Origin: an uncultured virus (IMG/VR IMGVR_UViG_3300031578_009156)
Taxonomy: Duplodnaviria; Heunggongvirae; Uroviricota; Caudoviricetes
Virus record (IMG/VR): IMGVR_UViG_3300031578_009156
Direction: 5' to 3' (one strand)
Length of the DNA: 64,000 nt
Made by a program: the position numbers and the translations under genes. Below, piece after piece: positions 4,121 to 63,262 of the stretch (positions are counted from its first letter, which is position 1; each line of letters opens with the position of its first letter). A model generated the notes under the pieces. The model was not told the DNA's origin. It was given only the letters and a program-made list of their open reading frames with translations, and searched no databases.

Positions 4121-6082
4121 ATGTCAGGGGATTACATCAAGTTCGGGAGCTTAATACTAAACGGTGAGGGGGCCGTAGGCCAGACAGGGGCAATTTACAC
4201 AGTCACGCGGGCGGGCGGCCTGGGTGGCTTGCCGCGGCCCCGTGTAGTCATCACGCAACTGGTGGGCGTGGGCGGTGCAGTTCTCAGTGAAGCAGACGAT
4301 GACGTGCGCGTGGTTGCACTGGAAGGGGAGGTACACGCTCCGTCTCACGACCTCCTGATGGATGAGTTGGAGCGGTTCAAGTACGAGATCAGCACCCAGC
4401 GTGGGGAGCAGTGGCTTTACTGGACGCCCGAAGGGCAAACGGCGCGCAAGATCGGGGCGGTTCTGCAGAACGACGGGGCGGTAGCCCTGGATACCGAAGA
4501 TGATACTACCGCGATTTTCAGGCTTGAATTTCTATGCGCTGATCCCTACTGGTGGTCCATCAGTTCTACCACGGCTTCCAAGTCGGTGACTGCATCGGGG
4601 CAAACTCTCAGCGTGACCAACGACGGGACGGCGTACTCAGAGCCAGTCATCCGCATCACACCCACCAGCATTAAGGCCAGTGGATATTCCTACAAGCGGT
4701 GGCTGGCAATCTACAACCGATTGTTGACCCGTGCGCTCACAGACTACCCGCTCGAGGTGACGACACAAGCGGGAACGGGCTTTAACCATGCAGCGTTGGT
4801 GGGAGCAGGTCATGCACAGGCGGACGGGGATGACTTGCGCGTGGAAGTGGACGGCGTAGAGGTTGACCGATGGCTCGATGGTCCCAATACCGCAACCTGT
4901 AAAGTCTGGGCTAACTTGACGTACCAGGTCGGCCAAAGCGCGATATTGGCCGAAACATTCGTATCGGGTGCCTCTGTATCGAGCATCAGCGTAGATGACA
5001 CGAGCGGCTTCCCCTCATCTGGCATTCTGTATAACCCCACCAGCGGGGAGGCGTTCACTTACACGGCGCGGGATGATGTGCTCGACCGTTTCACAGGCAT
5101 AACACGGGCAGACAAGGGCACGACGGCGGCCACGAACACCATCGGGCAAGCCCTGTGGTGGGTAGAGCACGACGTCTGGCTACTCTACGGCAACGCCGCT
5201 GCGACTGCTCCAACTGTGGACGATAATTACAAAGCGGCTTTCGAGTTGGACCACTCTACAAACACGAGTTGGGTCTACGAGATTTTTGGAGAAGATGACG
5301 GGCTGAGGGTTGCATCGTGGGTGTACCGGTATAGCGCGGGCGAATTACTCGCACAGTATACCGCAACGCGGTACACCACAGCAAATCCCTGGGAAGTCTT
5401 GGGTATGTACCATGGTGCGGGCGACGCGGGAGAGTACCAGCAAATGTATTTGTACAACCCCTGCGGTATCCTAAGTGCAAATTTTATGAGCGGCGAAACC
5501 TGGATGGATTATCCTGGCCTTCCAAACCCGCATGATGCCAGGATAGAATCGAGCAGGAACGGGGCTATCTGGCCTGCAGAGTACAATATTCCTGACCCAT
5601 CAGGCGCGCACGTCTATACTGCATGGAGCAGGGACGAAACTCTAACCGATGATTCATTTTTCGTTTCGTTGTATCTCGGCTCGGTTGGTAATCCTGTGAC
5701 TGTTGAGGCAGGCGCTTGCACACTAACCCTGAACTCCGCCGGCACTCCTGGGATTGTCTTGGTGGATGAGCAAGGTAGTTACGACCTTGGTATTACGCTG
5801 ACGATGGTAGAAGATGGGGCGGACGGGGCGGCTATACAGATACAATTCACGATAGATCTTAACGAAACCCTCGAGATAGACTGCGGGAATCGTACCGTCA
5901 CCTATCTAAAGGATAACAGCAACCAGTTCCAGGCGCTCACCCTCCAATCCCCGTCCTTGCGCAATTACTGGTTCAGGTTGCCGGGGCACTGGAATGGGGG
6001 CGAGACGGTTACTTTCAGATACGATGAGACGGGCGTGGCGGGGGTGACACTGGCTGTCATATACTACGATCGTTGGCTGTAG
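4121..6082 (+). CDS. Distal tail (Dit-like) protein with inserted domain
   Basis: Follows tape measure; FLCADPYW and VTNDGTAYSEPVIRI motifs; ends YYDRWL. Confidence 0.75.
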   Translation: MSGDYIKFGSLILNGEGAVGQTGAIYTVTRAGGLGGLPRPRVVITQLVGVGGAVLSEADDDVRVVALEGEVHAPSHDLLMDELERFKYEISTQRGEQWLYWTPEGQTARKIGAVLQNDGAVALDTEDDTTAIFRLEFLCADPYWWSISSTTASKSVTASGQTLSVTNDGTAYSEPVIRITPTSIKASGYSYKRWLAIYNRLLTRALTDYPLEVTTQAGTGFNHAALVGAGHAQADGDDLRVEVDGVEVDRWLDGPNTATCKVWANLTYQVGQSAILAETFVSGASVSSISVDDTSGFPSSGILYNPTSGEAFTYTARDDVLDRFTGITRADKGTTAATNTIGQALWWVEHDVWLLYGNAAATAPTVDDNYKAAFELDHSTNTSWVYEIFGEDDGLRVASWVYRYSAGELLAQYTATRYTTANPWEVLGMYHGAGDAGEYQQMYLYNPCGILSANFMSGETWMDYPGLPNPHDARIESSRNGAIWPAEYNIPDPSGAHVYTAWSRDETLTDDSFFVSLYLGSVGNPVTVEAGACTLTLNSAGTPGIVLVDEQGSYDLGITLTMVEDGADGAAIQIQFTIDLNETLEIDCGNRTVTYLKDNSNQFQALTLQSPSLRNYWFRLPGHWNGGETVTFRYDETGVAGVTLAVIYYDRWL

Positions 6083-19803: not shown

Positions 19804-19988
19804 AACCCCGACAACTGCCCCACCCTGCTGGCCGCCCCACCCCACAGGATGTGCCATGCGGTATCTGTCTGCAATTTCCCTACCACTCCCCGCGATTCCC
19901 CACAATCCCAAATAGCGAAATTCTTACACGCAAACGGATGAAAAACCTATCCGATACCGTGTAATTTTGACCAAAACGGGCCAAATGC

Positions 19989-20017
19989 TTGACAACTGGT
20001 AAGTTAGATGCTATAAT
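19989..20017 (+). promoter_or_regulatory. Consensus promoter of the early small-gene cluster
   Basis: TTGACA-17-TATAAT with extended TG; AACTGGTAAGTT in the spacer. Confidence 0.9.
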
Positions 20018-24909: not shown

Positions 24910-26315
24910 ATGCTTCCCCCCCCCAATGCCAGACGGGAGGGGCATCCCGCTCCCTCTCTCTTCGTCCTGGCTCGGACCAGGATATAGAGGGCTGCGGGCA
25001 GACACTTGACAAAAGCAAACATCCGTGCTATATTATACTTATGCACAGCACAGAGTCGGTTGTCATCAAGATACTTAACCCTACACAGTGGAAGCGCCAA
25101 TGGCTTGACGATACTGCCCGCGCCTTCAGTCAGGCCGTCCAGTTTGGCCTTGATGCCGCACGCGAGGACCACACCGACAACCGCACCAGATTGCACAAAT
25201 TGGTCTACCGAGCGGTGCGAGATCAATTTGGCCTTTCTGCCGATTATACCCGCATGTCTGTCAATGCCGTTGTGTCGCTTGCCCGTTCCTACTATGGGCA
25301 ACGGCGCTCCAGGCACATCAAGCGAGTCTCGTTTCCCAAGGTCAATGGCTCACAAGGTATTGGCCTGGGTATCCACTCTTATCGCATCGTCCAAGACAAC
25401 AACCGTCTTGTCCTACGCGTTTCGACTGGACAGCGCGGGCACTATGTATGGCTCGTGTTATGCGTTCCTACCAAGTATCGCGACCGCCTCTTACTCGCCA
25501 AGGGAGATGCTAAACTATTCAAGCGCGGCAATGACTGGTATGTTATGTTGCCCATCCGCGTAACCCCCACGCCTGCCGTCTGTGACGGTGAATCTACGTT
25601 CATCGGCGTTGACCTGGGTATCGTGAGACTGGCAACCGTTTCTACGCCAGACGGCATCACCTTTTTCAGCGGCAAAGAGGCGCGACATAGACGGGAGCAC
25701 TCTGCTGACTTGCGCGGGCGTTACCAGCGCCACAATCGGCTCGATCGCGTCAAGGCGCAAAAGGGCAAGGATACCAGGTATATGCGGGATCTGAACCACA
25801 AGATCAGTGCCACCCTCGTTGACATTGCCCTGCGCTATGACAGGCCAGTGATCGTCTTGGAGCGGTTGGACGGCATCAATAACCGACTCAAGGGCAGCAA
25901 GCGGTTCAAGCGCATGGTATCCTCGTGGACCTTTCGGCAACTGGTGACCTTCATCGAGTACAAAGCCGCTCGCTACAGCATTCCAGTTGTGTTCGCTGAT
26001 CCTCGCGGTACGTCGCGCACCTGCCCGAAATGCGGGCACAGCACACGCGCCAACCGTCCGAATCAATCTCGGTTTCGATGTGTGGCGTGCAACTACCAAG
26101 GCAATGCCGATGCAGTTGCCGCCATAAACATCGCTGCCCTTGGGCCTGGTGTCCTTGGGCAAGAGCCGACTGACACGGCTCGGGCTTCGGCCCAGACTGA
26201 ACCCGTTGGGGTTCGGCCCGATGTGGTCAAGGTTGATACGATTCTTTCGTGTCAGCAAACCACAACCTCCAGTTCCTTGCAGGAACCTCCCCGCTTTGGC
26301 GGGGAGAGGATGTCA
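24910..26315 (+). mobile_element. IS200/IS605-family tnpB-only element (left end approximate)
   Basis: tnpB; right-end hairpin CTCCCCGC-tttg-GCGGGGAG then GGATGTCA; hairpin-rich left region; no tnpA. Confidence 0.7.
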
Positions 26316-26354
26316 GGGTTAACCCCGTACTCTCCAGGGTATAAGGGATTGTGA
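25041..26354 (+). CDS. tnpB: TnpB RNA-guided nuclease
   Basis: GVDLG, IVLERL, CPKC..CVAC, NADAVAAINI; leaderless after TTGACA-17-TATATT. Confidence 0.92.
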   Translation: MHSTESVVIKILNPTQWKRQWLDDTARAFSQAVQFGLDAAREDHTDNRTRLHKLVYRAVRDQFGLSADYTRMSVNAVVSLARSYYGQRRSRHIKRVSFPKVNGSQGIGLGIHSYRIVQDNNRLVLRVSTGQRGHYVWLVLCVPTKYRDRLLLAKGDAKLFKRGNDWYVMLPIRVTPTPAVCDGESTFIGVDLGIVRLATVSTPDGITFFSGKEARHRREHSADLRGRYQRHNRLDRVKAQKGKDTRYMRDLNHKISATLVDIALRYDRPVIVLERLDGINNRLKGSKRFKRMVSSWTFRQLVTFIEYKAARYSIPVVFADPRGTSRTCPKCGHSTRANRPNQSRFRCVACNYQGNADAVAAINIAALGPGVLGQEPTDTARASAQTEPVGVRPDVVKVDTILSCQQTTTSSSLQEPPRFGGERMSGLTPYSPGYKGL

Positions 26355-37209: not shown

Positions 37210-38158
37210 CGGGAAATCGGTTCTCATCACGGGTGGCACGGGCACGTTCGGTCACGCGATGACCAAGGCGATCCTGGAGCAGGCAGAACCGAGGCGGCTG
37301 ATCATCTTCAGCCGAGACGGTCTAAAACAGGAGACCATGCGGCGGACCAGGTTCCCACAGTCGTGCATGCGGTGGATGGTTGGCGATGTGCGGGACCTGC
37401 GCCGACTGCATCAGGCATTTGAGGACGTGGACGTAATCTTTCACGCTGCTGCGCTGAAACAGATACTCGCTTGCGAATACAACCCGTTCGAGGCGATAAA
37501 GACGAACATTCTGGGATCCATGAATGTCATCGAGGTCGCCATAGCGCAGAACGTGGGAATGGTGGTCGCCATAAGCTCAGACAAGGCTTGTCAGCCTCTC
37601 AATTTGTATGGTGCAACGAAGATGTGCATGGAGAGGCTGTTTATCAACTCTACTGCCTACGTTGGCAAGCGCGCCACGGTCTTGGGCCTGGTGCGATACG
37701 GGAACGTAGCAGGCTCACGGGGCAGCGTGGCGCACGTGTTCGATTCACAGAAGGGGACAGGGGAGGTTGCTATCACCGACCCTCGGATGACGCGCTTCTG
37801 GTTCACAATCGAGGAAGCGGTCGCATTCACCCTCGCCCGCCTGGAGGACATGACGGGCGGGGAGATATTCGTACCCAAGATTCCCAGCGCGCGGATCGTA
37901 GACGTGGCGGAGGCCATTGCTCCTGGCTGCAAGGTACGCACTGTCGGGGTTCGACCAGGGGAGAAGATGCACGAAACTCTGATTGCACACGGGGAATGTG
38001 CCATTGACTGCGGCTCTTACTACATTATTGCCCCCTCTGGCTCGCTTACCAGCCTCGGCATGGGCACTACCGAGTACCGCAGTGATACCAACTCGGAATG
38101 GGTTACGGTGGAAGAAATCAGGAGGTGGTGGAGTGAGTACAAGGATTCCCTACAGTAG
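37202..38158 (+). CDS. pseB: UDP-GlcNAc 4,6-dehydratase (inverting)
   Basis: ITGGTGTFG, HAAALKQ, SSDKA..NLYGATK, RYGNVAGSRGSV, MTRFW, RPGEKMHE. Confidence 0.9.
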   Translation: MLNGKSVLITGGTGTFGHAMTKAILEQAEPRRLIIFSRDGLKQETMRRTRFPQSCMRWMVGDVRDLRRLHQAFEDVDVIFHAAALKQILACEYNPFEAIKTNILGSMNVIEVAIAQNVGMVVAISSDKACQPLNLYGATKMCMERLFINSTAYVGKRATVLGLVRYGNVAGSRGSVAHVFDSQKGTGEVAITDPRMTRFWFTIEEAVAFTLARLEDMTGGEIFVPKIPSARIVDVAEAIAPGCKVRTVGVRPGEKMHETLIAHGECAIDCGSYYIIAPSGSLTSLGMGTTEYRSDTNSEWVTVEEIRRWWSEYKDSLQ

Positions 38159-39218
38159 GCAGCAAATCACCGAGGATGACGTGCAGGCCGTTGCGTGTGC
38201 TCTCCAGGAAAGCCTGATCACGACCGGCCCTCACGTCAAGGAGTTTGAGCGTGCCTTCGCTGAGAAGGTCCAGGCGGGGTGCGCAGTGGCAGTGAGCAGC
38301 GGCACAGCGGCCCTCCACACGGCGATGGCCGCCATAGGGGTCGGGCCAGGGGATGAGGTCATCGTTCCCGCCATGACGTTCGTAGGAACGGCCAACGCCG
38401 TCCGCTACGTGGGGGCTACGCCCGTCATCGTGGATGTGAACCCCGACACCCTGCTGATTGATCCCGCTTGCGTAGAGCGGGCAATCACCCGCAGGACAAG
38501 GGCTATCGTGGCCGTGGACTACGCGGGGCAGCCGTGTAACTACGCTGGACTGTGGGCACTCGCCCGTTCGCACGACCTCTACCTCGTAGCAGATGCGGCC
38601 CACTCTCTGGGCGCGGTCTATGGTGATGCGCCAGTCGGCTCCCTGGCTGATGTTACGTGCTTCAGTTTCCACCCCGTCAAGCACATCACGACGGGGGAGG
38701 GGGGCATGGTTACTACCGATAAGGCCATACTGGCTAATCTCGCCAGGTCCTTCCGCAGCCACGGTCTGGACGAGAACAGGGAGATGGTCTGGGAGGGCTA
38801 TAACTACCGCATCACCGATTTTCAGTGTTCCCTTGGCAGCAGCCAACTGGCGCGGCTCGATGAGATCATGGAGGCGCGGCGCGGCATTGCACGGGCATAC
38901 GACAAGGCATTTGCTGGTACTGCGGTGCGGCCGCTCGGCCTGGCTCCCAGAGCGCGACACTCCTATCACCTGTACGTGGTGCGCGTGCCAAACCGTGACA
39001 AGGTTATGGCACGATTACGTAGCAAGGGCATTGGCGCGCAGATTCACTACCGCCCCGTCCACATGCATCAGTTCTACAGGTTCCTGATGGGAACGGGCAC
39101 GGGCCTCTGCCCTGTAGCCGAGCAGGCTTACGAGGAGATTCTGTCCATCCCCGTGTACCCTGGTCTGTTCCTGGATGATCAGCTTTTCGTGGTAGATGAA
39201 CTCCTGGAGGCAGTCTGA
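38133..39218 (+). CDS. pseC: DegT-family sugar aminotransferase
   Basis: [36 protein letters not shown]. Confidence 0.88.
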
Positions 39219-39961
39219 TGAACGTGGTGGCAATCGTTGCGGTTCGGCTGAACAGTTCGCGGCTCCCTGGCAAGGCCTTGATGGACATTGCGGGCGAGCC
39301 GATGCTGGCGCGGGTGGTCCACAGGCTGGAGCGGGCGCGGACCCTGGACAGGGTGGTGGTAGCTACGGTGGGCTGTGACGAAAACCTGCCCATCGTGGAC
39401 CTGTGCCGTGAAGAGGGGTGGGACACCTATGTCGGTACGCCCGACACATACGAGGACGTTCTGCTGAGGTGCTACCGCGCGGCCGTGGCGCGCAAAGCGG
39501 GCGCATTCGTGCGGGTCACCGTTGACTGCCCCCTGATCGAGCCGACGGTGGTGGACCTGGTGGTGTCTGCTTTCTTAGCGGAGCGGCCAGACCTTGCCAG
39601 CAATACCATACACCGCACCTGGCCGCGCGGGCTGGACGTATCTGTCATTGCGATTGAGGCTCTGGCGGTAGCAAACCGTCTGGGCAAAGGACCGCATCAC
39701 AGGCACCACGTTACCGCCTATCTCTACGAGTACCCTGACAAGTTCAATCTTCTGGCGGTGACGCGGACGGGCATGGACGCAAGTGGGCACCGCTGGACGG
39801 TGGATGAGCAGGCCGACCTGGTGTTTGTGCGGGAGGTTTACAAGAGGCTGGGCGGGCGCAACGACTTCAGTTGGCTCGATGTGTTGGGCCTGATAGAGGA
39901 TAACCCCGAGTTGCAGCGGGTTAACGCGCACGTGATTCAAAAAGGAGCGAAGGACCTATGA
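39218..39961 (+). CDS. Cytidylyltransferase (SpsF/PseF-like)
   Basis: [29 protein letters not shown]. Confidence 0.85.
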
Positions 39962-40944
39962 GACCAGTTGTGATTCGCGCAGACGGGGCGAACGGAATTG
40001 GGTTGGGGCACACCCGCCGTTGTGTGGAGATCGGGCGAACGCTCAAGGAGCGCGGCGCGGACGTGCTGTTTGTGTCGGCGGCCAACCCCGTGGTAAATCC
40101 GATACTGGCAGAATTCGGGCGCCCGATGTCAGAGGTGAGGAGCGAAGGGGCCGCACTGGAATATCTTGCTGGCTCGTTCCCTGACTCCATAGTCCTACTG
40201 GACACTCCTTACCCATACTCAGTAGCAGAGATCGAGCGGCTGAAGGGTGCTGGTTGCTCGGTCTTCATGATGCAAAACGAGTGTCCTGGAATGCTTGCCA
40301 GCGATTACGCAATCTTCCCAGATGACCACCACACCGCACCGAGCACCGGATGGGGTGATACGTTCCCGTTGATGGGGCTCGACTACGTGATCATCCCACG
40401 GATCGCTGTGTGGACGGCATGGACGGCACTTCACAGTGAAGCACAGGACCGCGTCGCCGTAGTGGCCGGCGCTAGCGACCCCTGGCACATCTTGCCACAG
40501 ATGGCAAGGTTGTTCTACAAATTGGATGACTATGAGGTTGTGTTTCTGGAGGGACAGGACACCGACTATCACGAAGAGATGGTGGGCCTGTGCAAACCTG
40601 AGCGCATGGCCTCGGTGCCGTTCAATTATGTTGACCTGTTCTCTGCCAGAATGGTGGTCACCGTGTTCGGGTGCACGGCATACGAACTGATTTATGCGGT
40701 GCGGCCTTTCCTAGCACTGGGGCCAAACGAGAGGTACGCGCGTTATGCCAGGACCCTCTCCCAGCGAACCCACGCCCTGAATGTTCTCGGCTGGCCATGC
40801 ACCACGGATGACCTGGAAACAGCACTGTTAAGCCTCACGGCTTTTTACTGGGATATGACGGCAGCCCAACGAGGGCTGATTGACGGCGCAGGCGCTGAGC
40901 GCATTGCGGACCACATTCTACAGGAGGCTAGACGTGATAGTTGA
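39958..40944 (+). CDS. pseG: PseG/SpsG-like UDP-sugar hydrolase
   Basis: [30 protein letters not shown]. Confidence 0.75.
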
Positions 40945-41413
40945 CGGGTACGAGCAGTACGGCAGGTACTACGAGGACTTTAACATTGGTGATGTATTCT
41001 GTCATTGGCCCGGGCACACGGTCACCGAGGGGGAGCACTCCCTTTTCTGTGCTTTGACAAGAAACGACCACCCCGTGCACAGCGATCAGGTGTACGCCGC
41101 CAGCGCCCGCCACGGGCGCATTCTGGTAGTGGGCACTTTCGTGTTCTCCCTGGTCGTGGGCATGACCGTGGGGGACATCAGCGGGAAGGCGATTGCTAAC
41201 CTGGGGTACGAGAAAGTTACCCACGAAGCTCCTGTTTTCGTGGGTGATACTCTCTACGCTGAGACGGTCGTGGTGGACAAGCGACAGACCAGCAAGGCTG
41301 GCATTGTGACCGTGGAGACACGGGCAACGAAAACGAAGCGGATAGGTGAGCACCCCAGTGTTCTGGTTCTGACGCTGCGCCGCAAAATCTTAGTTCCGAG
41401 GAGGGAGCAATGA
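40934..41413 (+). CDS. MaoC-family dehydratase
   Basis: GRYYEDF, NDHPVHSD, PVFVGDTLYAE. Confidence 0.88.
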   Translation: MIVDGYEQYGRYYEDFNIGDVFCHWPGHTVTEGEHSLFCALTRNDHPVHSDQVYAASARHGRILVVGTFVFSLVVGMTVGDISGKAIANLGYEKVTHEAPVFVGDTLYAETVVVDKRQTSKAGIVTVETRATKTKRIGEHPSVLVLTLRRKILVPRREQ

Positions 41414-42294
41414 CACGGAGAGTTCCATACCCGATGAGAAGTCTACTGTTCGTGCCAGGCCACAACGAGCGGTATTTGCGCTCTGCAGCGGACTCTGGCG
41501 CGGACGTCCTCTTGCCCGACCTGGAGGACTCAGTTCCCCTGGCATGCAAGGCGCAGGCACGTGACACGGTGGCCCAGTGGATGCAGTCTTGCTGTGCTGG
41601 TCTGCATGTGTTCCCACGGGTGAATGGCGGTCCCGACGTGCTCCCAGATGTGCTGGCCCTGGCAAAATGTGGTGTGGACGGGTTCATGCTCCCTAAAGCC
41701 TACAGGGGCGAGAACGTCTTGCTGTTCGACAAGTTGCTCAAGATCGCGGAGGTGGAAAACGGGCTGGCTCCTGGCTCCCTCCAGATTATTCCCTTGATCG
41801 AGACCTGCTCGGCAGTCTTGCACGTGCAAGAGATTTGCGAGGCGTCTCCCCGCGTAATCGCCGTGGCTTTCGGGTGCGAGGACTTCGTGGCCGACCTCCA
41901 CGGGACGCACGACCTGGAGGGCAAGGTCTTGGAGGTCCCCCGTGCGCTCATTGCACTGGGTGCCCGGGCGGCCGGCGTGATCCCGATAGACACGGTGCAC
42001 GTCGAGGTCAACGACCTGGCCGACCTGGAGCGCAACGCCCGCTACGCCCGTGGCCTGGGCTTCGAGGGCATGTTGGCCCTGCACCCCAAAGAACTCCCTA
42101 CCATTCACGAGTGTTTCACGCCAGACGCCTGGGAGGTCGAGCGGGCGCGGGGAATGCTGGCCCTCGCTGCCGAAGCTGAGCGGGCGGGCAAGGGAGTGGC
42201 GATAATGGAGGGGCGGTTCATCGGGCCGCCGATGGTGCGGGCGGCAAGGCACACGCTCGAACTGGCAGAAGTCATAGAGAGGAGAGGCAAGTGA
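41410..42294 (+). CDS. CitE/HpcH acyl-CoA lyase family
   Basis: RSLLFVPG, DLEDSV, PLIET, FGCEDF. Confidence 0.88.
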   Translation: MTRRVPYPMRSLLFVPGHNERYLRSAADSGADVLLPDLEDSVPLACKAQARDTVAQWMQSCCAGLHVFPRVNGGPDVLPDVLALAKCGVDGFMLPKAYRGENVLLFDKLLKIAEVENGLAPGSLQIIPLIETCSAVLHVQEICEASPRVIAVAFGCEDFVADLHGTHDLEGKVLEVPRALIALGARAAGVIPIDTVHVEVNDLADLERNARYARGLGFEGMLALHPKELPTIHECFTPDAWEVERARGMLALAAEAERAGKGVAIMEGRFIGPPMVRAARHTLELAEVIERRGK

Positions 42295-42959
42295 AGAAAC
42301 TGGTGATCGTGGGAGGCATCGGCAACGGTGCTGTGGCGCTGTCCACGGTGGTGGACATCAATAATTCGGAGGACGGGTACAATACCTGGGAGGTGCTCGG
42401 CTTCCTGAATGATAGTGCGGACAGGGCCGAAGTGCATGGCTTCCCTTGGCTGGGACCGATAGAGAGCAGTTCTGTGCAAAGGCTGCGTGATCGCAAGGAC
42501 GTGTATTTCTTGTGGACCCTGTTTTCCACGCGGTTGCGCCAGGATATGGTGGTCAGGCTCCAGGGCCTGGGCATTGAGCGGGAGAAGTGGGCGACTCTCA
42601 TTCACCCTGCTGCCGTCGTGTCGCGCTTCGCGGAGATTGGGCGGGGCGTAATCATGCATGCGCAGTCGTCCGTTGGGCCGGCAGTCTCACTGGGCGACCA
42701 CGTGCAGATGTACAACCAGACCTACGTGGGCCACAACACCCGCGTGGGTAACTACTCTTTTTTGGCGAATGGTGCCCACATCAGCAGTTTCGTGACCTTG
42801 GAGGAGGGGGCATACCTGGGCATGTCGTGCGCCGTCCGTGAGTTCGTCAGGGTCGGCCAGTGGGCCACTGTTGGCATGGGGGCGGTCGTGCTGGAGAACG
42901 TCGAGCCACACACTACCGTGGTGGGGGTTCCAGCCAGGGCAATAGAGAGGAGAAGTTAG
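42291..42959 (+). CDS. NeuD/PglD-family acyltransferase
   Basis: GFLND, TLIHP, hexapeptide repeats, VVGVPAR. Confidence 0.85.
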   Translation: MKKLVIVGGIGNGAVALSTVVDINNSEDGYNTWEVLGFLNDSADRAEVHGFPWLGPIESSSVQRLRDRKDVYFLWTLFSTRLRQDMVVRLQGLGIEREKWATLIHPAAVVSRFAEIGRGVIMHAQSSVGPAVSLGDHVQMYNQTYVGHNTRVGNYSFLANGAHISSFVTLEEGAYLGMSCAVREFVRVGQWATVGMGAVVLENVEPHTTVVGVPARAIERRS

Positions 42960-43787
42960 ATGGCCGTTACGATCATCGCTGAAGTTGGATCGAACTGGGG
43001 CGGGAGCCTGGATCGTGCGCTCGATTACGTGGAGGCCGCGGCCATGGTTGGCGCGGACGCGGTTAAGTTCCAGACCATCCGCATAAACCTGTTGTATGCC
43101 CGAGGCTACGAGCCGCACTTTCAGATCCCAGAATTGCCCGATGACTGGCACTTCGAGTTGAAAGCCAGGGCGGACAAGCTCGGGATCGAGTTCGTGTCTA
43201 CCCCGTTCTACTTGGACGCTGTGGACCTCTTAGAGCGCGTGGGGGTTAAGCGGTACAAGATCGCTTCGGGCGACATCACCTTTCGCCCACTTCTGCAGAA
43301 GGTGGCAGAGACTGGAAAGCCACTCCTGTTGTCAACGGGTGCCTGTGACATGAACGACATACGAAAGGTAGTCAGCTTCCTCAAGGATTGCTATAGTTGG
43401 AACAAGGTGACCTTGCTCCATTGCGTGACCCGCTACCCCGCATCTGTGGACGAAATGGCCCTGTGGAGCATGCAGTATCTGCGCGACTGTTTTGGGTGCC
43501 CGGTCGGCCTCTCGGACCACTCCCTGAGCGCGGCGGTATCTATTGCAGCGGTTGGCATGGGGGCCTCGGTGATCGAGAAGCACATCACATTCGACCGTCG
43601 TACACCTGGCCCCGACCACCCGTTTGCTACGACCGTGGACGAGTTCGCGGACCTGGTTCGTGACATTCGTTCAGTGGAGGCGGCGTTGGGGGTTTATGAC
43701 AAAGCCCCCTCCCCCTCCGAGCAGGGAACTGCAGGAAGAATCAGGCGCAACCCTAACGACTGGCTACGTCCGGAGGTGCGAGAATGA
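42960..43787 (+). CDS. NeuB/PseI nonulosonic acid synthase (no C-terminal SAF domain)
   Basis: IIAEVGSN, ADAVKFQ, KIASGD, LSTG, LHCV..YP, GLSDHS, IEKH. Confidence 0.92.
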   Translation: MAVTIIAEVGSNWGGSLDRALDYVEAAAMVGADAVKFQTIRINLLYARGYEPHFQIPELPDDWHFELKARADKLGIEFVSTPFYLDAVDLLERVGVKRYKIASGDITFRPLLQKVAETGKPLLLSTGACDMNDIRKVVSFLKDCYSWNKVTLLHCVTRYPASVDEMALWSMQYLRDCFGCPVGLSDHSLSAAVSIAAVGMGASVIEKHITFDRRTPGPDHPFATTVDEFADLVRDIRSVEAALGVYDKAPSPSEQGTAGRIRRNPNDWLRPEVRE

Positions 43788-44419
43788 CACGACCACTAGA
43801 GCAATGGAAAGGCACGTTTGGCGATGAGTACACGGCGCGAAACTCCGCCGAGGTGTGGTTGACGGGGGAGAAACGAGCCTCCGCTGTAGCAGTGTGGGAG
43901 CGGATGCTCAGAGAGGTATGGCCTGGACTCAGCAGCATCATGGAGATTGGGGCAAACATCGGCCTAAATCTTGGGATATTGCGCGAACTGCTCCCCTATA
44001 CTCCCCTCTATGCGATTGAGCCAAATTACGTGGCCTGGATGACCCTGGTTGACCGCTATGCGGGATTGACTGCTTGGAATGAGGCAGTCGAAGAGTGGGA
44101 GCCGAAAGAAGGCACCTTTGACCTGGTGTTCACGTCTGGCGTGCTGATCCACATTCCGCCAGAAAACCTCCTGGCGGCCACAGACAAGATCGTCCGCGCG
44201 GCTGGCAGGTACGTGCTGTGCAAAGAGTACTTCGATGTGAAGCCGACCATGATCCCGTACCACGGCCAGGACAACCTGTTGTTCAAGCGCGATTTCGGTT
44301 CCTGGTACCTGGATCACTATCCCGAATTGCACTGCATAGATTACGGCTTCTGGTGGTCGCGCCTGGAGCCGTACTGTGACAATTCCACCTGGTGGTTGTT
44401 CGAGAAAGGAGCAAGATGA
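43784..44419 (+). CDS. Pseudaminic-acid-associated methyltransferase
   Basis: WKGTFGDEYTARN, EIGANIGLNL, GVLIHI, LFKRDF. Confidence 0.85.
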   Translation: MTRPLEQWKGTFGDEYTARNSAEVWLTGEKRASAVAVWERMLREVWPGLSSIMEIGANIGLNLGILRELLPYTPLYAIEPNYVAWMTLVDRYAGLTAWNEAVEEWEPKEGTFDLVFTSGVLIHIPPENLLAATDKIVRAAGRYVLCKEYFDVKPTMIPYHGQDNLLFKRDFGSWYLDHYPELHCIDYGFWWSRLEPYCDNSTWWLFEKGAR

Positions 44420-45531
44420 GGTACTGCAAGAAGTGTGTTCAACCCGATACACGTCCTGGCATTGTGTTCGATGACGAGGGCGTATGCATGGCGTGCCGCG
44501 TGGGCCACCAGGAAGTGGACTGGGATGCGCGCGAGGCGGAATTGCGGGACATTGCGAGCTGGGCCAGGGAACAGGGCGCGACGTGGGATTGCGCCATTGG
44601 CGTGTCGGGCGGTAAAGACAGCACCTTCCAGGCTCTGTACGCGCGCAACCGCTTGGGCCTGCGGGCATTGCTCGTCAATTGCACGCCAGACCCCATCACC
44701 GACGTCGGTGTGGCTAACAGGGAGAATCTCTACCACCTGGGGTTCGACATGATCCAGATCAGACCAAACCCCCTCGTCACGCGGGCCTTGGTCACCCGCG
44801 CATTTGAGGATTACGGCAACCTTGTCAAACCTACTGAGTACCCTCTTTATGCGGTGACATGGCAAGAGGCTCTTATGCGGCATGTTCCTTTGGTGATACA
44901 GGGGGAGAACCCCGCCGAGACCCTGGGTATTGGAGGCGGCCTGTCAACGGGTGGTGATGCTTCAGACATCCGCCACCACAGCACGATTGCGGGAGGTGCC
45001 AAAGCATGGGTGGGTGATGGCGTGACGATGAAGGACATGGCATTCTACGAGATCCCACCCGTGGAGGAGATTGAGCGCGCGGGAATCAGGTCCGTGTGGC
45101 TGGGCCACTACGCCAGAGAGTGGAGCAGAACGCACAACACCGAGTTCGCCGTCTCCCACGGCCTGCGCGGTCGCCCCATGCACAACCCTGCCCACGCGGG
45201 ACGGCTCAGCGAGCACGGCAGCGTTGACAGCGACTTTCAGATCGTAAACCAGATGCTCAAATACTACAAGTTTGGGTTCGGGTTTGTCACCGATGAGGTG
45301 TGTTACTCAATCCGCGAAGGGGCAATGACCCGTGAAGAGGCCATTGAGCTGGTACAGAAGTACGACGGGCGCTGTGACGCGGTGTACATCGAGCAGTTCT
45401 GTGATTACATCGGCTACACCGCCAGCCGATTTTGGAAAGTGGTAGACAGGTGGGTTAGTGAGAGCCTGTTCGAAAAGCAGGGCTACCGCTGGGTGCCCAA
45501 GTTTACCGTAGGGGAGGACTTTAATGAATGA
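44416..45531 (+). CDS. N-acetyl sugar amidotransferase (WbuX/PseA-like)
   Basis: CKKCVQPDTRP, GVSGGKDS, YYKFGFG, MTREEA. Confidence 0.88.
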   Translation: MRYCKKCVQPDTRPGIVFDDEGVCMACRVGHQEVDWDAREAELRDIASWAREQGATWDCAIGVSGGKDSTFQALYARNRLGLRALLVNCTPDPITDVGVANRENLYHLGFDMIQIRPNPLVTRALVTRAFEDYGNLVKPTEYPLYAVTWQEALMRHVPLVIQGENPAETLGIGGGLSTGGDASDIRHHSTIAGGAKAWVGDGVTMKDMAFYEIPPVEEIERAGIRSVWLGHYAREWSRTHNTEFAVSHGLRGRPMHNPAHAGRLSEHGSVDSDFQIVNQMLKYYKFGFGFVTDEVCYSIREGAMTREEAIELVQKYDGRCDAVYIEQFCDYIGYTASRFWKVVDRWVSESLFEKQGYRWVPKFTVGEDFNE

Positions 45532-46516
45532 GGATAGCATTCGACCTGATAGCCTGCGGCCCGACCTGGCTGCAGCAGCCCAGCGAGATAGGGAGTGGCT
45601 GTTGGCCCGTGAGGCTGAGTTCGTCTACGTGGACTGCCCCGTGTGCGATACGTCTAGCAACACGAACCCCTGGCTCATCACTGATGAATTCCAATATCGC
45701 AGGTGCTCGGACTGCGGAACGCTCTTTATCAGCCCTCGGCCAACCCAAGAACTTCTGAATGCCTACTATGCGCGGTCGGAGATTGCTCAATGCTGGTGCG
45801 AGGAAATCTACCCCGCAGCGGAAGATACCAGGGCCGCCGAGATACACCGACCGCGCGTTTATCGCATAATCAGTCTGGCGCGCTCCCTGGGGGTGCCATG
45901 TGACATCCTCGTGGACATCGGCGCGGGGTACGGAACGTTCTGCGCCGAGGCTGCAAGGCAAGGATTCCGCTGTATCGCCGTGGAACCTTCACCATCTCTG
46001 GCTGGTGCGTGTGCCAGTAGAGGGGTGGACACACGGGCCTGCTCCTTGGACAAAGCAGACCTCCCGCAGGATTCCGCCTCAGTGGTCACAGCATTTGAGG
46101 TGATCGAGCACGTGGCTGACCCCAGGTGGTTTCTAAGGACCTGTTACAGGACGCTTGCCCCTGGCGGCCTGCTCGCCCTCACTTGCCCCAACGTTGACGG
46201 GTTCGACGTGCAGGTGCTGGGTGCGGCCTCCAGTACCATAGGCCACGAACACTTGACCTACTTTACCCCTGAGTCACTACCCACCCTGCTTGAGGCTGTT
46301 GGGTTTGAGATCGTAGAGGTGGCGACACCTGGCAAACTCGACCTGGAACTCGTCCACAAGGCGGTGGTGGCTGGCGCGATAGTGACTCCATGGATCAGGT
46401 ACCTGGTCGTGGACAGGTGGGACAAGATTGACCGAGAGGCGGTTCAACAATGCCTGGCGGACAACCTTCTATCATCCCATCTGTGGGTGGTGGCGAGGAA
46501 GCCGAAGGGGGACTGA
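45524..46516 (+). CDS. Zn-ribbon + SAM methyltransferase
   Basis: CPVC..CSDC..SPRP; DIGAGYG; FEVIEH. Confidence 0.85.
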   Translation: MNEDSIRPDSLRPDLAAAAQRDREWLLAREAEFVYVDCPVCDTSSNTNPWLITDEFQYRRCSDCGTLFISPRPTQELLNAYYARSEIAQCWCEEIYPAAEDTRAAEIHRPRVYRIISLARSLGVPCDILVDIGAGYGTFCAEAARQGFRCIAVEPSPSLAGACASRGVDTRACSLDKADLPQDSASVVTAFEVIEHVADPRWFLRTCYRTLAPGGLLALTCPNVDGFDVQVLGAASSTIGHEHLTYFTPESLPTLLEAVGFEIVEVATPGKLDLELVHKAVVAGAIVTPWIRYLVVDRWDKIDREAVQQCLADNLLSSHLWVVARKPKGD

Positions 46517-48199: not shown

Positions 48200-48789
48200 G
48201 CCTAACCTTGACCTCTATCCTTTCCCAAAATCTTCCGCCCCTGTCCACTCAGGTGATCGAGGCGGCGTTGCGGCAGTGCCAGTACCAGCGCCCCACGGTC
48301 TTGGACAGGGAAGCGGAAGGTGGCGGGTTCCCGCCATTCGTCCAGCCGTTCTACCTCTGGCTGGTCGAGTACGGGCGGATACCATCCCCAGCGGAACACA
48401 TCGGCCTGTATTTTGCGCTCTATCCTGGAGCCGACAACGGGCACCGAGCAGGGTTGGAGGCACGGATCAGGCGGGCGTGGCCGTCACTGGTGCGCGACCA
48501 GCACCTCGTGGCGCTTCTCAGGGAAGCGGGCATGCGGGTGACCTACAGCCTGGACTGGGACCGCGCGGGCATTGACGTGACCGTATGGCCCCCACCCGAG
48601 AGCGGGCGGGCACCGTTGTTCGTGCATGCCTTCGTCCAGACTGCGCGGTCGGCGGCCTACAGGAAGCAGAAGATCACCGGCGCGAGGCACTTCGATCTTC
48701 CGTTGGATCCCAGCGAAGCGCAGGTCGCGGGTAACGTGTGGCTCTACCAACGCCCCACCCACACCGAACGGGTACGTGTGGCCCTGTGA
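48196..48789 (+). CDS. TaqI-like PD-(D/E)XK nuclease (tentative)
   Basis: GLEARIRRAWPSLVRD..DRAGIDV resembles TaqI-family motifs. Confidence 0.45.
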   Translation: MSLTLTSILSQNLPPLSTQVIEAALRQCQYQRPTVLDREAEGGGFPPFVQPFYLWLVEYGRIPSPAEHIGLYFALYPGADNGHRAGLEARIRRAWPSLVRDQHLVALLREAGMRVTYSLDWDRAGIDVTVWPPPESGRAPLFVHAFVQTARSAAYRKQKITGARHFDLPLDPSEAQVAGNVWLYQRPTHTERVRVAL

Positions 48790-48822
48790 ACCTTAAAGAT
48801 TTTGACAAAACCGACCAACTGC

Positions 48823-48851
48823 TTGACAACTGACCAGTTGCGTGGTACAAT
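48823..48851 (+). promoter_or_regulatory. Promoter of the replication operon
   Basis: TTGACA-17-TACAAT; palindrome CAACTGACCAGTTG in the spacer. Confidence 0.85.
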
Positions 48852-58748: not shown

Positions 58749-59933
58749 CTGCTCTCCCCTCTAAAGAGGGGAGCTTCTAGGGCTTACACCCAAGCTCGCC
58801 AGTCCGCGAGCCAAAATGTTCAGAGACGCATTTAAGTCTCTGTCCATTTCCAAACTGCAAAAAGGACAAGAGTGGACACGAACGGACAATGCTTTTTCGA
58901 CAATCTGACCACAGCGAGAACACATCTTGGTGGTGTTGCGCGGATCGACCAGCACACACGAACGACCGGCCCATGCTGCCTTGTACGTCGTGTACTGTAC
59001 CAGTTGGCCCCACGCCGCATCCGAGATGCTCTTGTTCATGCTGCGCCAGTTGCCATCTTGCATGTCCTGGATATTCAAGTCCTCGAAGACCACGATCTGA
59101 AATTCATCTACCAGGCGTCTGCTGAGTTTGTGCGCAAAGTCGGCACGCCGGTTCGCAATGCGCTGGTGGATGTGTTGAATTACCCGCTTGCATCGGGTAT
59201 GCTCAGGTGTTCCCTTTTCGCACTTGGAGAGCTTGCGCTGTGCCTTGGCAAGCGCCTTTTCGTCCTTGCGGAAAAAACGCGGGTTGGCGATCATCTCGCC
59301 GGTGGACAGGGTCGCGAATTTTTCAAGTCCCAGGTCGATGCCAATGACATTGGGAACTGGGGGCAAAGGAATGGACTCAACCTCACAGGAAAAGCAGGCA
59401 TACCAATTACCCAAGGCGTCGCGCCTGACAGTGAGCGTCTTGATTTTACCCTCAATAGGGCGATGCAATCTGATCTTGACGTTGCCGATCTTGGAAAGAT
59501 AGAGTCGTTCATCACTGGTGAGCTTGAATCCGCTCTGTGGATAGGTGAAAGAATCATAGCGGTCCGCTCCGCGAAACCGAGGATAGCCGGGGTTCTCTCC
59601 GCTTTCTCTCATGCGCCTGAAAAAGTGCTGGAGTGCCAGATCGACACGGGTTTGCGCATTTTGCAGACACTGCGAGAAAGCGTTCGAGAGTTCAGGCTTT
59701 TCCTGTTTCCATCTGGTGAGAAGTTTGTTTGTGTCGAACAGAGACAACGACATCTGTTGTTCTTGCCATGCACCACGCCGCACCTCAAGAGTCTTATTGT
59801 AGACCCACCGACAAGCGTCGAGAGATACCTGCATGGCTTTGCGTTGGGCTCGGGTTGGATAGAGTCTGAACCGGAACGTCTTCATGGCTCTATTGTATCA
59901 CGTATTAAGGCAGGTGTCAAGTGCTTAATATCA
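58745..59933 (-). mobile_element. IS605-group tnpB-only element with resolvable ends
   Basis: Right-end hairpin CTCCCCTCT-tt-AGAGGGGAG..TCAC; left-end hairpin TATTAAG..CTTAATA after TTAC; removal restores the flanking gene overlap. Confidence 0.85.
58761..59885 (-). CDS. tnpB: TnpB RNA-guided nuclease
   Basis: FRFRLYPT, GIDLG, VFEDL, CSRC..CPFC, DRDLNASLNI. Confidence 0.95.
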   Translation of the reverse strand: MKTFRFRLYPTRAQRKAMQVSLDACRWVYNKTLEVRRGAWQEQQMSLSLFDTNKLLTRWKQEKPELSNAFSQCLQNAQTRVDLALQHFFRRMRESGENPGYPRFRGADRYDSFTYPQSGFKLTSDERLYLSKIGNVKIRLHRPIEGKIKTLTVRRDALGNWYACFSCEVESIPLPPVPNVIGIDLGLEKFATLSTGEMIANPRFFRKDEKALAKAQRKLSKCEKGTPEHTRCKRVIQHIHQRIANRRADFAHKLSRRLVDEFQIVVFEDLNIQDMQDGNWRSMNKSISDAAWGQLVQYTTYKAAWAGRSCVLVDPRNTTKMCSRCGQIVEKALSVRVHSCPFCSLEMDRDLNASLNILARGLASLGVSPRSSPL

Positions 59934-61166: not shown

Positions 61167-61284
61167 GGGGGTGCTTGGCTTCGACGGGGGGCGGTGTGGT
61201 TGGTAGGTGAAAAGGCCCATTGAACGACACCGAAGGCCACGGATTGACAAACTCCGGACATGGGTTCAATTCCCATCACCTCCA
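61167..61284 (+). ncRNA. 118-nt mini-tmRNA (tRNA-like domain only)
   Basis: 5' GGGGGUGCUUGGCUUCGACGGGG; 3' CUCCGGAC-AUGGG-UUCAAUU-CCCAU-CACCUCCA; G3-U pair; about 60 nt between the ends. Confidence 0.8.
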
Positions 61285-61287
61285 CTA

Positions 61288-61498: not shown

Positions 61499-61678
61499 TT
61501 GACAAATCGCCAGACTATGGTATACTATACATTGTCACACGCATAGAGGCGGGCGTTTTGCTTTAGTAGCCGTCTCACAACTTCAAAGGTAAGTTGGGCA
61601 AAGCGCCCTCATTATGGTGGACTCGCGTCCCGCTGTGCGTGTGACAACGACGGCATACCATGATGGGGGCGCTTTGCT
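61499..61678 (+). promoter_or_regulatory. tnpB promoter and switch-like leader
   Basis: TTGACA-16-TATACT; alternative long helices covering the RBS region. Confidence 0.7.
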
Positions 61679-62878
61679 ATGAAGGTTCTCAGAGCCTACA
61701 AGACAGAGCTTGATCCAACGAACAAGCAGTGCACATGGTTCATGCGATGTGCGGGCGCTGCCAGGTTCGTGTATAACTGGGCGCTGGCCGACCGCAAGGA
61801 GCGATGGGAACAGGGCCAGCAAAACACGAACTTGTATGAGCAAAAACGGCGATTCAATGCCCTGAAACGCGAGCAGTGGCCGTGGCTTTATGATGTGCCT
61901 TACACCCTGCAAGATGCTGCCTTTGTCAACTTAGATACTGCTTACCAGAACTTCTTTCGACGTGTGAAGCAAGGCCAGGAAAAAGTCGGCTTCCCCAAGT
62001 TCAAATCCCGTAAGCGCGGTATTGGCTCTTTCATTCTGCGCGGAAGCATCCACGTAGAGGAAGGTCGAATCAAGTTACCACGTATCGGATGGGTGAGGCT
62101 GAAGGAACATGAGTATCTACCCTCCGAGCAACAGGTTAAACTCTTGTCCGTGACTATCTCGGAGCGAGCAGGCAGGTGGTACGCTTCTGTACAGGTGGAA
62201 GAAGATGGGCCAGAACCAGAAACAGGCACGGATATTATCGGTGTGGACCTGGGCATATCCCACCTGGCAGTATGCTCAGATGGTACAGTATTTGAGAATC
62301 CAAAAGCACTTATACAGGCAGAACGTAAACTCGCACGGCTACAGCGTGAACTAGACCGCAGAACGCAAGGCGGCCAGAACTGGCATAAGACGAAAGCCAA
62401 GATCGCGCAGTGTCACGCCAGGATTGCCAATGTCAGGCAGCATGCGCTTCACCAGGTCAGTCATTACATCACGGCGAAAGTCAAGCCTGAGACAGTAGTG
62501 ATTGAGGATTTGAACGTGAATGGTATGCTCCAGAATCATCACCTGGCAAGGGCAATTTCGGATGTGAGTTTTGGCGAACTGAGGAGACAGATCGAGTACA
62601 AGGCCAAGTGGCACGGCGTCAAGGTTGTGATAGCCGATAGATTCTGGCCGTCAAGCAAGGCTTGCTCGCGGTGTGGATGTGTCAAAAGCAACTTGACCTT
62701 GGCCGACAGAACCTATACCTGTGATGACTGCGGGTTGGTTATAGATCGTGACTTGAACGCGGCGTTAAATCTTGCCGCGCTAGGGAAGGCGAAAACATCG
62801 CCGGATTGCCTGGGGAGTTGCGGTGCAGGAAGGCCGCACTGTGAACCAGGAACCGAGCAGCCGCTTATCGCGGCATAG
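61679..62878 (+). CDS. tnpB: TnpB (IS607/IS1341-type) RNA-guided nuclease
   Basis: RAYKTELDPT, GVDLG, VIEDL, CSRC..CDDC, DRDLNAALNL. Confidence 0.95.
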   Translation: MKVLRAYKTELDPTNKQCTWFMRCAGAARFVYNWALADRKERWEQGQQNTNLYEQKRRFNALKREQWPWLYDVPYTLQDAAFVNLDTAYQNFFRRVKQGQEKVGFPKFKSRKRGIGSFILRGSIHVEEGRIKLPRIGWVRLKEHEYLPSEQQVKLLSVTISERAGRWYASVQVEEDGPEPETGTDIIGVDLGISHLAVCSDGTVFENPKALIQAERKLARLQRELDRRTQGGQNWHKTKAKIAQCHARIANVRQHALHQVSHYITAKVKPETVVIEDLNVNGMLQNHHLARAISDVSFGELRRQIEYKAKWHGVKVVIADRFWPSSKACSRCGCVKSNLTLADRTYTCDDCGLVIDRDLNAALNLAALGKAKTSPDCLGSCGAGRPHCEPGTEQPLIAA

Positions 62879-62906
62879 GTCTCGGATGGCACATTATAAT
62901 TCTAGT

Positions 62907-63109
62907 GTGCACCCCACGGGCGTGTGGGGGGTTGGTTAGAGGTACGGTCACACAATTGCGGTACGATGGTGCACCCCACGGGCGTGTGGGGGGTTGGGTT
63001 GACCTGATCCCGACCGACGCGGACAAGTGCGTGCACCCCACGGGCGTGTGGGGGGTTGGTCGCCCGCGCAGGCTTCCCCAGTGCACCCCACAGGCGCGTG
63101 GGTGTTTGG
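62907..63109 (+). CRISPR. CRISPR mini-array, 4 repeats / 3 spacers
   Basis: 29-bp GTGCACCCCACGGGCGTGTGGGGGGTTGG at 62907, 62969 and 63031; degenerate copy at 63081; spacers 33, 33 and 21 bp. Confidence 0.9.
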
Positions 63110-63140
63110 ACCTGGCCCCCGTGCTTACTTCACTGAGAAG

Positions 63141-63173
63141 CAGGCTCCGCTATTGCGGGGCCTGTTTTGTTTT
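63141..63173 (+). terminator. Terminator after the array
   Basis: CAGGCTCCGC-tatt-GCGGGGCCTG followed by a T-run. Confidence 0.8.
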
Positions 63174-63233
63174 CCCCTATTCCCCTACCCCCTACCCCCA
63201 ACCTTAACATTTTTGAAAATCCCTGTCAACCTC

Positions 63234-63262
63234 TTGACAACTGGTAAGTTATGTGCTATAAT
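63234..63262 (+). promoter_or_regulatory. Consensus promoter, near-copy of 19989
   Basis: TTGACAACTGGTAAGTTA..TGCTATAAT. Confidence 0.9.

Follow-up and report, generated by a model that had tools for sequence, protein, structure and literature searches.

A tnpB gene followed directly by a short array of the CRISPR (clustered regularly interspaced short palindromic repeat) type lies at positions 61499-63174 of a 64,000-nucleotide (nt) sequence from an uncultured virus (IMG/VR record IMGVR_UViG_3300031578_009156). We refer to the whole of this sequence as the window. Profile scans with PHROGs identified it as the genome of a tailed phage, with genes for a tape measure protein, Dit, an integrase, DnaB, a sliding clamp, and methyltransferases. 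The integrase gene suggests lysogeny, and the phage looks temperate. The window has three tnpB genes. The one studied here is preceded by a promoter and a structured leader, and 28 nt separate its stop codon from the first of the 29-bp repeats. All features of this locus are on the plus strand. A preliminary description of the same DNA had listed these elements together with an intact RuvC triad and a zinc finger, and their coordinates held in our analysis.

The gene at 61679-62878 encodes an ISDra2-like TnpB of 399 amino acids, as determined from the open reading frame (ORF), Pfam, and a structure-sequence alignment. Matches to the Pfam domains HTH_OrfB_IS605, OrfB_IS605 (RuvC), and Cas12f1-like_TNB (zinc ribbon) were all above the cut-offs, with E values of 1e-18 to 1e-26. 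In the alignment, residues D190, E276, and D358 occupy the columns of the ISDra2 TnpB catalytic residues, indicating that the RuvC D-E-D triad is intact. The zinc ribbon is formed by C329, C332, C348, and C351 (CxxC...CxxC). The closest solved structure by sequence was ISDra2 TnpB (8h1j/8bf8; E 6e-65 over residues 5-367), and the match to LaTranC (PDB 9jfo) was in the RuvC part only (E 5e-23). As the preliminary description had stated, there was no tnpA and no cas gene: none of the ORFs of the window scanned with PHROGs (52 ORFs) or Pfam (50 ORFs) encodes TnpA or a Cas protein, with some short ORFs lying outside these scans. There was also no conserved or recognisable left end.

The promoter is sigma-70-like (TTGACA-16-TATACT at 61499-61526; 11/12 matches in the promoter scan). 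Relatives carry different promoter-like sequences at this position, and the upstream DNA is not conserved. The structured 5' leader (61527-61678) contains the inverted repeats 61532-61549/61630-61647 and 61598-61618/61657-61677, the last of these arms abutting the tnpB start codon. The leader has no second copy in the window or the fetched loci and is not conserved among relatives. We considered whether it might be a second copy of the guide RNA (omegaRNA) and ruled this out, as the scaffold anchor described below is unique in the window. DNA of the window was found in six soil-metagenome runs, none of them an RNA run and five of them possibly its source, and we compared the contigs of four runs with the locus. 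Three of the four runs contained contigs that match 61592-61661 with three substitutions and three indels, at a depth of about 5-8x versus about 100x; this variant of the leader is present elsewhere in the same soils.

The array consists of three identical repeats and a divergent fourth. The 29-nt repeat, GTGCACCCCACGGGCGTGTGGGGGGTTGG, occurs exactly at 62907, 62969, and 63031 (0 matches expected, based on 100 shuffles). Repeat 1 (62907-62935) has a predicted fold of 5 nt, a 7-bp stem (CCCCACG/TGTGGGG) with a 4-nt loop, and a 6-nt tail, GGTTGG; repeats 2 (62969-62997) and 3 (63031-63059) are identical to it. The preliminary description gave the spacers as 33 bp, which is correct for spacers 1 (62936-62968) and 2 (62998-63030); spacer 3 (63060-63080), delimited by the repeat scan, is truncated to 21 nt. 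Repeat 4 (63081-63109), GTGCACCCCACAGGCGCGTGGGTGTTTGG, is unlike repeats 1-3 and differs at only one position from the repeat of two relatives, L086 and L087, and for this reason we think that it is an older form. If new units are made as copies of repeat 1, the repeat next to the scaffold, one would expect to see just this, three identical repeats followed by an older one.

The region behind the array (63110-63174) contains, as read from the letters, a possible extra guide and then a GC hairpin with a T-run at about 63141-63174. The hairpin had weak Rfam matches to 3' terminator hairpins of small RNAs, and the terminator scan made no call there. The preliminary description had named a terminator; the hairpin probably ends the transcript. 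No Rfam CRISPR-DR family matched at the locus, even at E values up to 10, and the contigs of the four soil runs included no length variants of the window's own array.

Repeat 1 is, on the evidence of alignment and predicted folding, the 3'-terminal hairpin of the TnpB omegaRNA. The predicted scaffold (62788-62906) takes in the final ~30 codons of tnpB together with the 28-nt gap, and comprises three covarying stems and a hairpin at 62888-62911, the 3' arm of which runs into repeat 1. A TATAAT at 62895-62900, which had been put forward in favor of a chance association between gene and array, is in the loop of this hairpin and was not called by the promoter scan. The minimum free energy of the scaffold fold had a z score of -2.62, and RNAalifold predicted 26 pairs across 18 loci, 20 of them with compensatory changes. 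In the alignment of 18 loci, conservation and base-pair covariation began in the 3' end of tnpB and reached position 62935, where repeat 1 ends, but no further, indicating that the sharp boundary there would be the one between scaffold and guide. The preliminary description had named, as an outcome that would refute its TnpB reading, binding of TnpB to nothing but an omegaRNA ending near 62890-62905; conservation of the guide RNA continues beyond these positions. The Rfam family Transposase-2 RNA, a motif adjoining IS605 orfB genes, matched 62843-62911, ending 5 nt into repeat 1, with 30.1 bits, below the gathering score of 42.7.

The same layout was found in all relatives with at least 52% TnpB identity and enough downstream DNA, with the exception of L097: a conserved block over the 3' end of tnpB (GGATTGCCTGGGGAGTT ... 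CTGTGAACCAGGAA), a CCGAG...CTCGG hairpin, another hairpin, and a 29-nt element, which in this clade has the form GTxxACCCCAC......GTGGGxGxTTGG. The distance from the conserved block, which serves as the scaffold anchor, to the first 29-nt element was 100-108 nt in 15 of 20 loci. Our assignment of repeat 1 as the last omegaRNA hairpin is based on this fixed distance, the end of conservation at 62935, the covariation, and the Transposase-2 match.

Additional scaffold copies were present in some relatives. The 5' untranslated regions of L089 (400-563) and L090 (1-92) contain a second omegaRNA scaffold that is divergent, bears a repeat-like hairpin, and ends 5 nt before the start of tnpB, such that its "guide" would be the start of tnpB itself. 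In L098 (2505-2697), repeat 2 is followed by a second, partial scaffold copy and then another repeat. The partial copy is 97% identical to the scaffold of L099 over 33 nt and is joined at TTGG; this is a duplication of a larger omegaRNA segment.

Array linkage followed the TnpB lineage in the sequences compared. We fetched 79 related loci from viral contigs and the best 80 of 488 from metagenome contigs, and scanned these 159 for repeats. The clade as counted here is the window plus 24 loci with at least 52% TnpB identity (n=25). Arrays of 2 to 8 or more units with a period of 61-62 were present in 14 of the 25 (the window, L085, L087, L090, L092, L095, L098, L100, L101, L103, L006, L011, L127, and L130), most of them with 2-4 units and L101 with 8 or more regular units. 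Five loci have one unit followed by unique DNA (L086, L091, L096, L099, and L125), two have at least one unit before the contig ends (L088 and L089), and in three the contig ends before the position is reached (L093, L094, and L102). The remaining locus, L097, has the scaffold but no hairpin. The preliminary description had allowed for homologs that lack arrays, and this is not what the clade shows. Among the 159 fetched loci, relatives with less than 50% identity had no array beside tnpB in the repeat scans. Repeat matches in L059 and L162 were unrelated repeats upstream of tnpB and were set aside.

This count agreed with a maximum-likelihood tree of 31 rows, from which one short row had been left out. 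One clade, with support of 97/99, contained all of the array rows (11) and all of the single-unit rows (4), along with two rows of undefined state and the one without the hairpin (L097), and 9 of the 10 repeat-less rows fell outside this clade. The sequence of the repeat varied with the TnpB lineage; its length, its position, and a TTGG-like tail persisted, from phages with 59% GC to AT-rich ones. In L130 (3015-5986), tnpB is split into 3015-3812 and 5477-5986 by an insert of ~1.7 kb, and the scaffold and a two-repeat array still follow.

Two loci with identical TnpB differ in the number of repeats. L086 and L087 are identical over a module of 1519 bases, whose right edge coincides exactly with the end of repeat 1 and whose left edge is in what looks like a shared coding tail. 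L086 has one repeat and L087 has four, and the flanks differ on both sides. More generally, gene neighbourhoods varied among clade loci, which come from soil, sediment, and bioreactor metagenomes. The neighbouring ORFs are phage genes of the replication type, and in L085 and L087 the array is directly followed by a Prim-Pol; none of 50 neighbour ORFs from 12 clade loci encodes a Cas protein or TnpA.

The array has the geometry of type I-E CRISPR arrays. The type I-E array of E. coli K-12 has a 29-nt repeat, GAGTTCCCCGCGCCAGCGGGGATAAACCG, and a period of 61-62. The window array likewise has a 29-nt repeat and a 61-62-nt period, with a hairpin that starts at repeat position 6. The start of the repeated unit falls within the 3' arm of the omegaRNA hairpin before it and not at a structural edge, which suggests that the unit is defined by a ruler-type integrase and not by RNA structure.

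Spacer 1 has a matching protospacer preceded by AAG. Each of the four soil runs contained one contig that matches only 62935-62967, that is, the last G of repeat 1 and 32 of the 33 bases of spacer 1. The sequence on both sides of the match is unlike that of the locus and not repeat-like (30 letters read on each side). During acquisition by the E. coli type I-E system, the G of the protospacer-adjacent motif (PAM) becomes the last base of the repeat. The letters before the protospacer end in ...CCAGGAA, indicating that the protospacer is preceded by AAG, of which the G is the last repeat base; the chance of one given trinucleotide is 1/64. AAG is given as the PAM of Thermus type I-E in a recent preprint (bioRxiv 10.64898/2026.04.20.719267). 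The preliminary description had seen a hint of a class 1 system in this array. That hint is partly borne out by the repeat length, the period, and AAG, and these features point to host type I-E adaptation proteins that supply the spacers, not to a host effector that uses them.

Searches for other targets were negative. Spacer 2 gave no target, and no spacer had a target among the fetched loci or GenBank phages; in plasmids, there were only two weak Streptomyces matches (E 0.7). The 20-mers of window spacers 1 and 2 had no match in viral contigs, and those of the L011 and L006 spacers matched only their own contigs. The same soil runs also contained contigs with L087 spacers, which indicates that these soils are home to two clade members.

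We found no cellular array with this repeat, which the preliminary description had supposed might equal a host type I repeat. The exact repeat had 0 matches in viral contigs. A search with a relaxed repeat core against one genome each of 185,579 species gave no array and five single chance matches, among them two ABC-permease-like coding regions (Anaerolineales) and a tandem repeat in Actinomycetospora. In 401 Chloroflexota genomes, matches to the repeat core with 2 mismatches were at the level of controls and formed no array, and there was no close TnpB homolog (E at most 1e-120) among the best 4 candidates per genome. This sample includes six unpublished genomes (G175, G274, G346, G040, G147, and G229), and the negative result rests partly on them.

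Based on these findings, we hold with moderate confidence that the locus is an intermediate between TnpB and type V effectors, similar to TranC or Cas12r, and that it probably acquires spacers by way of the type I-E Cas1-Cas2 of its host. Of the two readings offered in the preliminary description, this is the one favored by the array-linked homologs and by guide-RNA conservation through repeat 1, and none of the three outcomes named there as refuting it was borne out by the sequence comparisons. The promoter, tnpB, the omegaRNA scaffold, and tandem units of a 29-nt terminal hairpin and a guide would form one transcription unit. The transcript starting from 61499 would give both TnpB, presumably an RNA-guided RuvC nuclease, and an omegaRNA with spacer 1 as its guide. 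With repeat 1 as the last hairpin of the guide RNA, spacer 1 would occupy the place of the single guide of an ordinary TnpB and would be used in cis. Further units could supply extra guides: units 2-4 might work in the manner of Cas12r, as short RNAs of hairpin plus guide, or in the manner of TranC, with the scaffold provided in trans, or only the first unit may be in use. New units would be inserted at repeat 1, next to the scaffold, by host type I-E Cas1-Cas2, whose own repeat the hairpin would imitate. The system would likely be used against rivals within the same host, through cutting of competing mobile DNA or of other phages.

We propose, more tentatively, how such an array could have begun. 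The last hairpin of the omegaRNA would imitate a type I-E repeat, and host Cas1-Cas2 would insert spacers behind an intact scaffold, re-aiming the nuclease in cis without splitting the RNA. Older units would be pushed downstream and decay, and the same trick would have arisen independently in Cas12r. We regard this as a possible route, and one about which we have more doubt than confidence. If it is true, the birth of an array would have been caught in the act by a route not yet described, in which, on a phage, the adaptation machinery of a class 1 system re-aims a class 2 effector.

Several observations weigh against the intermediate described here and its proposed mode of spacer gain. Pairing of the repeat with the scaffold (RNAduplex, 18 loci) gave no consistent anti-repeat site, and because of this a TranC-style split of the guide is not supported here, although the RNAs might instead be held together by the protein or act in trans. 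L097 is a member of the clade without the hairpin. The repeat tail GGTTGG differs from the E. coli type I-E handle, ATAAACCG. The AAG comes from a single protospacer, seen in samples that are not independent and may be the source of the window, and the protospacer could be in a part of the phage outside the window. No host, host type I-E system, or matching host repeat was identified in the searches described above. Finally, the arrays are short and partly decayed, as in the truncated spacer 3, and neutral by-products would also fit.

The last point can be put as an explanation in its own right, in which an I-E-like hairpin draws off-target Cas1-Cas2 integration in lysogens, the resulting arrays are unselected, TnpB uses whatever sequence adjoins its scaffold, and older units decay. 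Off-target integration by type I-E Cas1-Cas2, giving "neo-CRISPR" arrays, is said to have been found by Nivala et al. in 2018. The small number of units in most loci, the truncated spacer 3 and divergent repeat 4, the presence of one or four repeats beside identical TnpB proteins, the missing anti-repeat, and the suggestion of lysogeny from the integrase would all be accommodated. It accounts less well for arrays in more than half of the clade loci and in hosts of very different GC content, for the 8 or more regular units of L101, and for the fact that the hairpin itself is kept across the clade; moreover, each integration changes the guide of TnpB anyway and is hence not free of effect. We consider this explanation unlikely.

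The window array could be one of the known phage mini-arrays that depend on Cas proteins of the host: processed by host Cas6e and used by a type I-E Cascade-Cas3 against rival elements, with TnpB as a linked neighbour that supplies the promoter. This would fit the type I-E geometry, the AAG PAM, and the lack of any cas gene found on the phage. However, the repeat forms part of the guide RNA of TnpB, with a tail that tracks the TnpB tree, not the host; members with a single repeat exist; and no cellular array with this repeat was found in the 185,579 species or the 401 Chloroflexota genomes. We consider use of this array by a host effector unlikely as well. A third possibility is a decoy, in which the copies of the repeat resemble host repeats and titrate the Cas proteins of the host, as RNA anti-CRISPRs of the known Racr class do. 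An I-E-like repeat on a phage, behind a strong promoter, is what such a decoy would look like, but regular 32-33-nt spacers and a real PAM-flanked protospacer are both unnecessary for a decoy, and the repeat matches no host array found; we think this very improbable.

In a fourth explanation, an ordinary tnpB borne by an insertion sequence landed by chance beside an unrelated array; the preliminary description had leaned to a chance neighbour of an array loaded by a host class 1 effector. The lack of tnpA and of a recognisable left end speaks for this, but 20 further clade loci have the same layout, in varied contexts and with a fixed distance from scaffold to repeat, and on sequence comparison we consider a chance neighbour excluded because of the clade-wide linkage, the L086/L087 module shared between differing flanks, the varied neighbourhoods, and the unconserved upstream regions.

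A TnpB beside an array is, as a general kind, already established by TranC and the V-U* branches. Three properties of the present locus are distinct: an intact, covarying scaffold fused to repeat 1, single- and multi-guide states among identical proteins, and a PAM that points to type I-E adaptation. TranC transposon-CRISPR intermediates were reportedly introduced by Jin et al. in Cell in 2025. According to later work, they combine a nuclease of TnpB size with a short CRISPR array and are said to use both CRISPR RNAs (crRNAs) and right-end RNAs; one of them, CauTranC9, is phage-borne, is ~414 amino acids long, and has a fold near that of ISDra2 TnpB (bioRxiv 10.64898/2026.03.27.714800; PMC13565253). 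The studied clade resembles TranC in that a TnpB/Cas12-like nuclease is stably linked to an array across relatives (14/25 loci; 97/99 support). It differs in that TranC is defined by a functional split of the guide into trans-activating crRNA and crRNA, whereas repeat 1 is still fused to the scaffold here and no conserved anti-repeat was found. The TranC repeats reported there are 32-38 bp versus 29 here, a comparison of the clade with TranC by description and not by its numbered groups.

The V-U* branches (V-U6 to V-U45) of Altae-Tran et al. (PNAS 2023; PMC10691335) combine TnpB with a downstream array and no other cas genes. The likeness to our locus, a TnpB branch with a downstream array and no other cas genes found, is one of description and not an assignment to a branch. 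Altae-Tran et al. proposed that arrays arise from serial duplication of omegaRNA segments and set aside arrays linked to non-type-V systems (PMC10691335). Their supplement gave no match to "29 bp", "29 nt", or "I-E". ISDra2 TnpB itself has the same domains and catalytic residues and an omegaRNA overlapping the 3' end of the gene. It has one guide, set by the right end of the transposon, and a TnpA partner. In the studied clade, by contrast, no tnpA was found, the left end is not conserved, and the guides number up to 8 or more.

The closest likeness in architecture that we noted was to Cas12r of the Thermus Lalka phages. The repeats of Cas12r arrays are 29 bp long and the spacers 31-33 nt, one repeat is enough, and spacers are proposed to come from type I-E adaptation by the host (bioRxiv 10.64898/2026.04.20.719267; Viruses 2024 PMC11437467); its PAM is ARG, and it was reported to work with a 44-nt crRNA and no other RNA (bioRxiv 10.64898/2026.04.20.719267). 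Both systems have a phage-borne TnpB-like nuclease followed at once by a short 29-bp-repeat array with no cas gene. A single repeat is enough in one and single-repeat members exist in the other, spacer gain beside the nuclease gene is proposed for Cas12r as well, ARG overlaps AAG, and both phages encode an integrase. In Lalka27a (PQ109076), 15 bp lie between a TnpB-family coding sequence of 564 amino acids and the CRISPR feature that follows it; the repeat of this feature, GTTTCTCCCGTGCGCGCATGGAGGCACCG, shares the pattern GTT..CCC..CGCGC..GG..G with the studied clade. The proteins differ: 399 amino acids here versus 564 in Lalka27a gp54, with a best BLASTP E value of 0.083, so that homology was not found at that level. 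With no BLASTP relation to LalCas12r, the two are independent lineages that converged on 29-nt I-E-like repeats. The RNAs also differ, with crRNA alone reported for Cas12r and a covarying omegaRNA scaffold kept before repeat 1 here, as do the habitats: hot springs versus soil, sediment, and bioreactor metagenomes.

Other features of the window are outside this locus. The other two tnpB genes, at 25041-26354 (+) and 58761-59885 (-), encode proteins with 26% and 33% identity to the studied TnpB, respectively; they are far outside the studied clade and have no repeat or array. A transfer-messenger RNA (tmRNA)-like mini gene of 121 nt at 61167-61287 (+) matched the Rfam tmRNA family with 65.9 bits. 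Its acceptor stem and T arm are intact, its 3' end is CCACTA, and 62 nt replace the 314-nt mRNA-like and pseudoknot part. ARAGORN made no call on it, and searches for this piece in the 401 Chloroflexota genomes gave weak T-arm matches only. It may be a phage mimic of a tRNA-like domain or an unusual attachment site. A promoter-like sequence, TTGACA-17-TATAAT (12/12), at 63234-63262 is part of an element that recurs at 63199-63262, 19988-20017, and 48789-48851. This element had ~3x the local depth in the soil runs, with other flanks, and is probably a common phage promoter cassette. The cluster at 37983-46513 (an aminotransferase, a cytidylyltransferase, an HpcH/HpaI aldolase, a hexapeptide transferase, NeuB, and methyltransferases) looks like a phage-borne pathway for synthesis of nonulosonic (sialic-like) acid. 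Megablast of the whole tnpB-array locus gave no match among GenBank phages.

The origin of CRISPR effectors from transposon nucleases, and the origin of their arrays, are open questions that this clade addresses. Its single- and multi-guide members have identical or near-identical proteins, and the repeat can still be recognised as the hairpin that ends the omegaRNA. The system is small (399 amino acids and an RNA of ~150 nt), which makes it possible to test serial addition of units against splitting of the RNA, and the hijacking of a class 1 integrase by a class 2 precursor. A small nuclease with a possible AAG-type PAM could also be of interest for genome editing. The architecture of the thermophilic Cas12r phages recurs here in an unrelated TnpB lineage of soil and sediment phages, and the locus would represent a natural halfway stage between the nucleases of jumping genes and CRISPR immunity, of a kind that has been described only recently.

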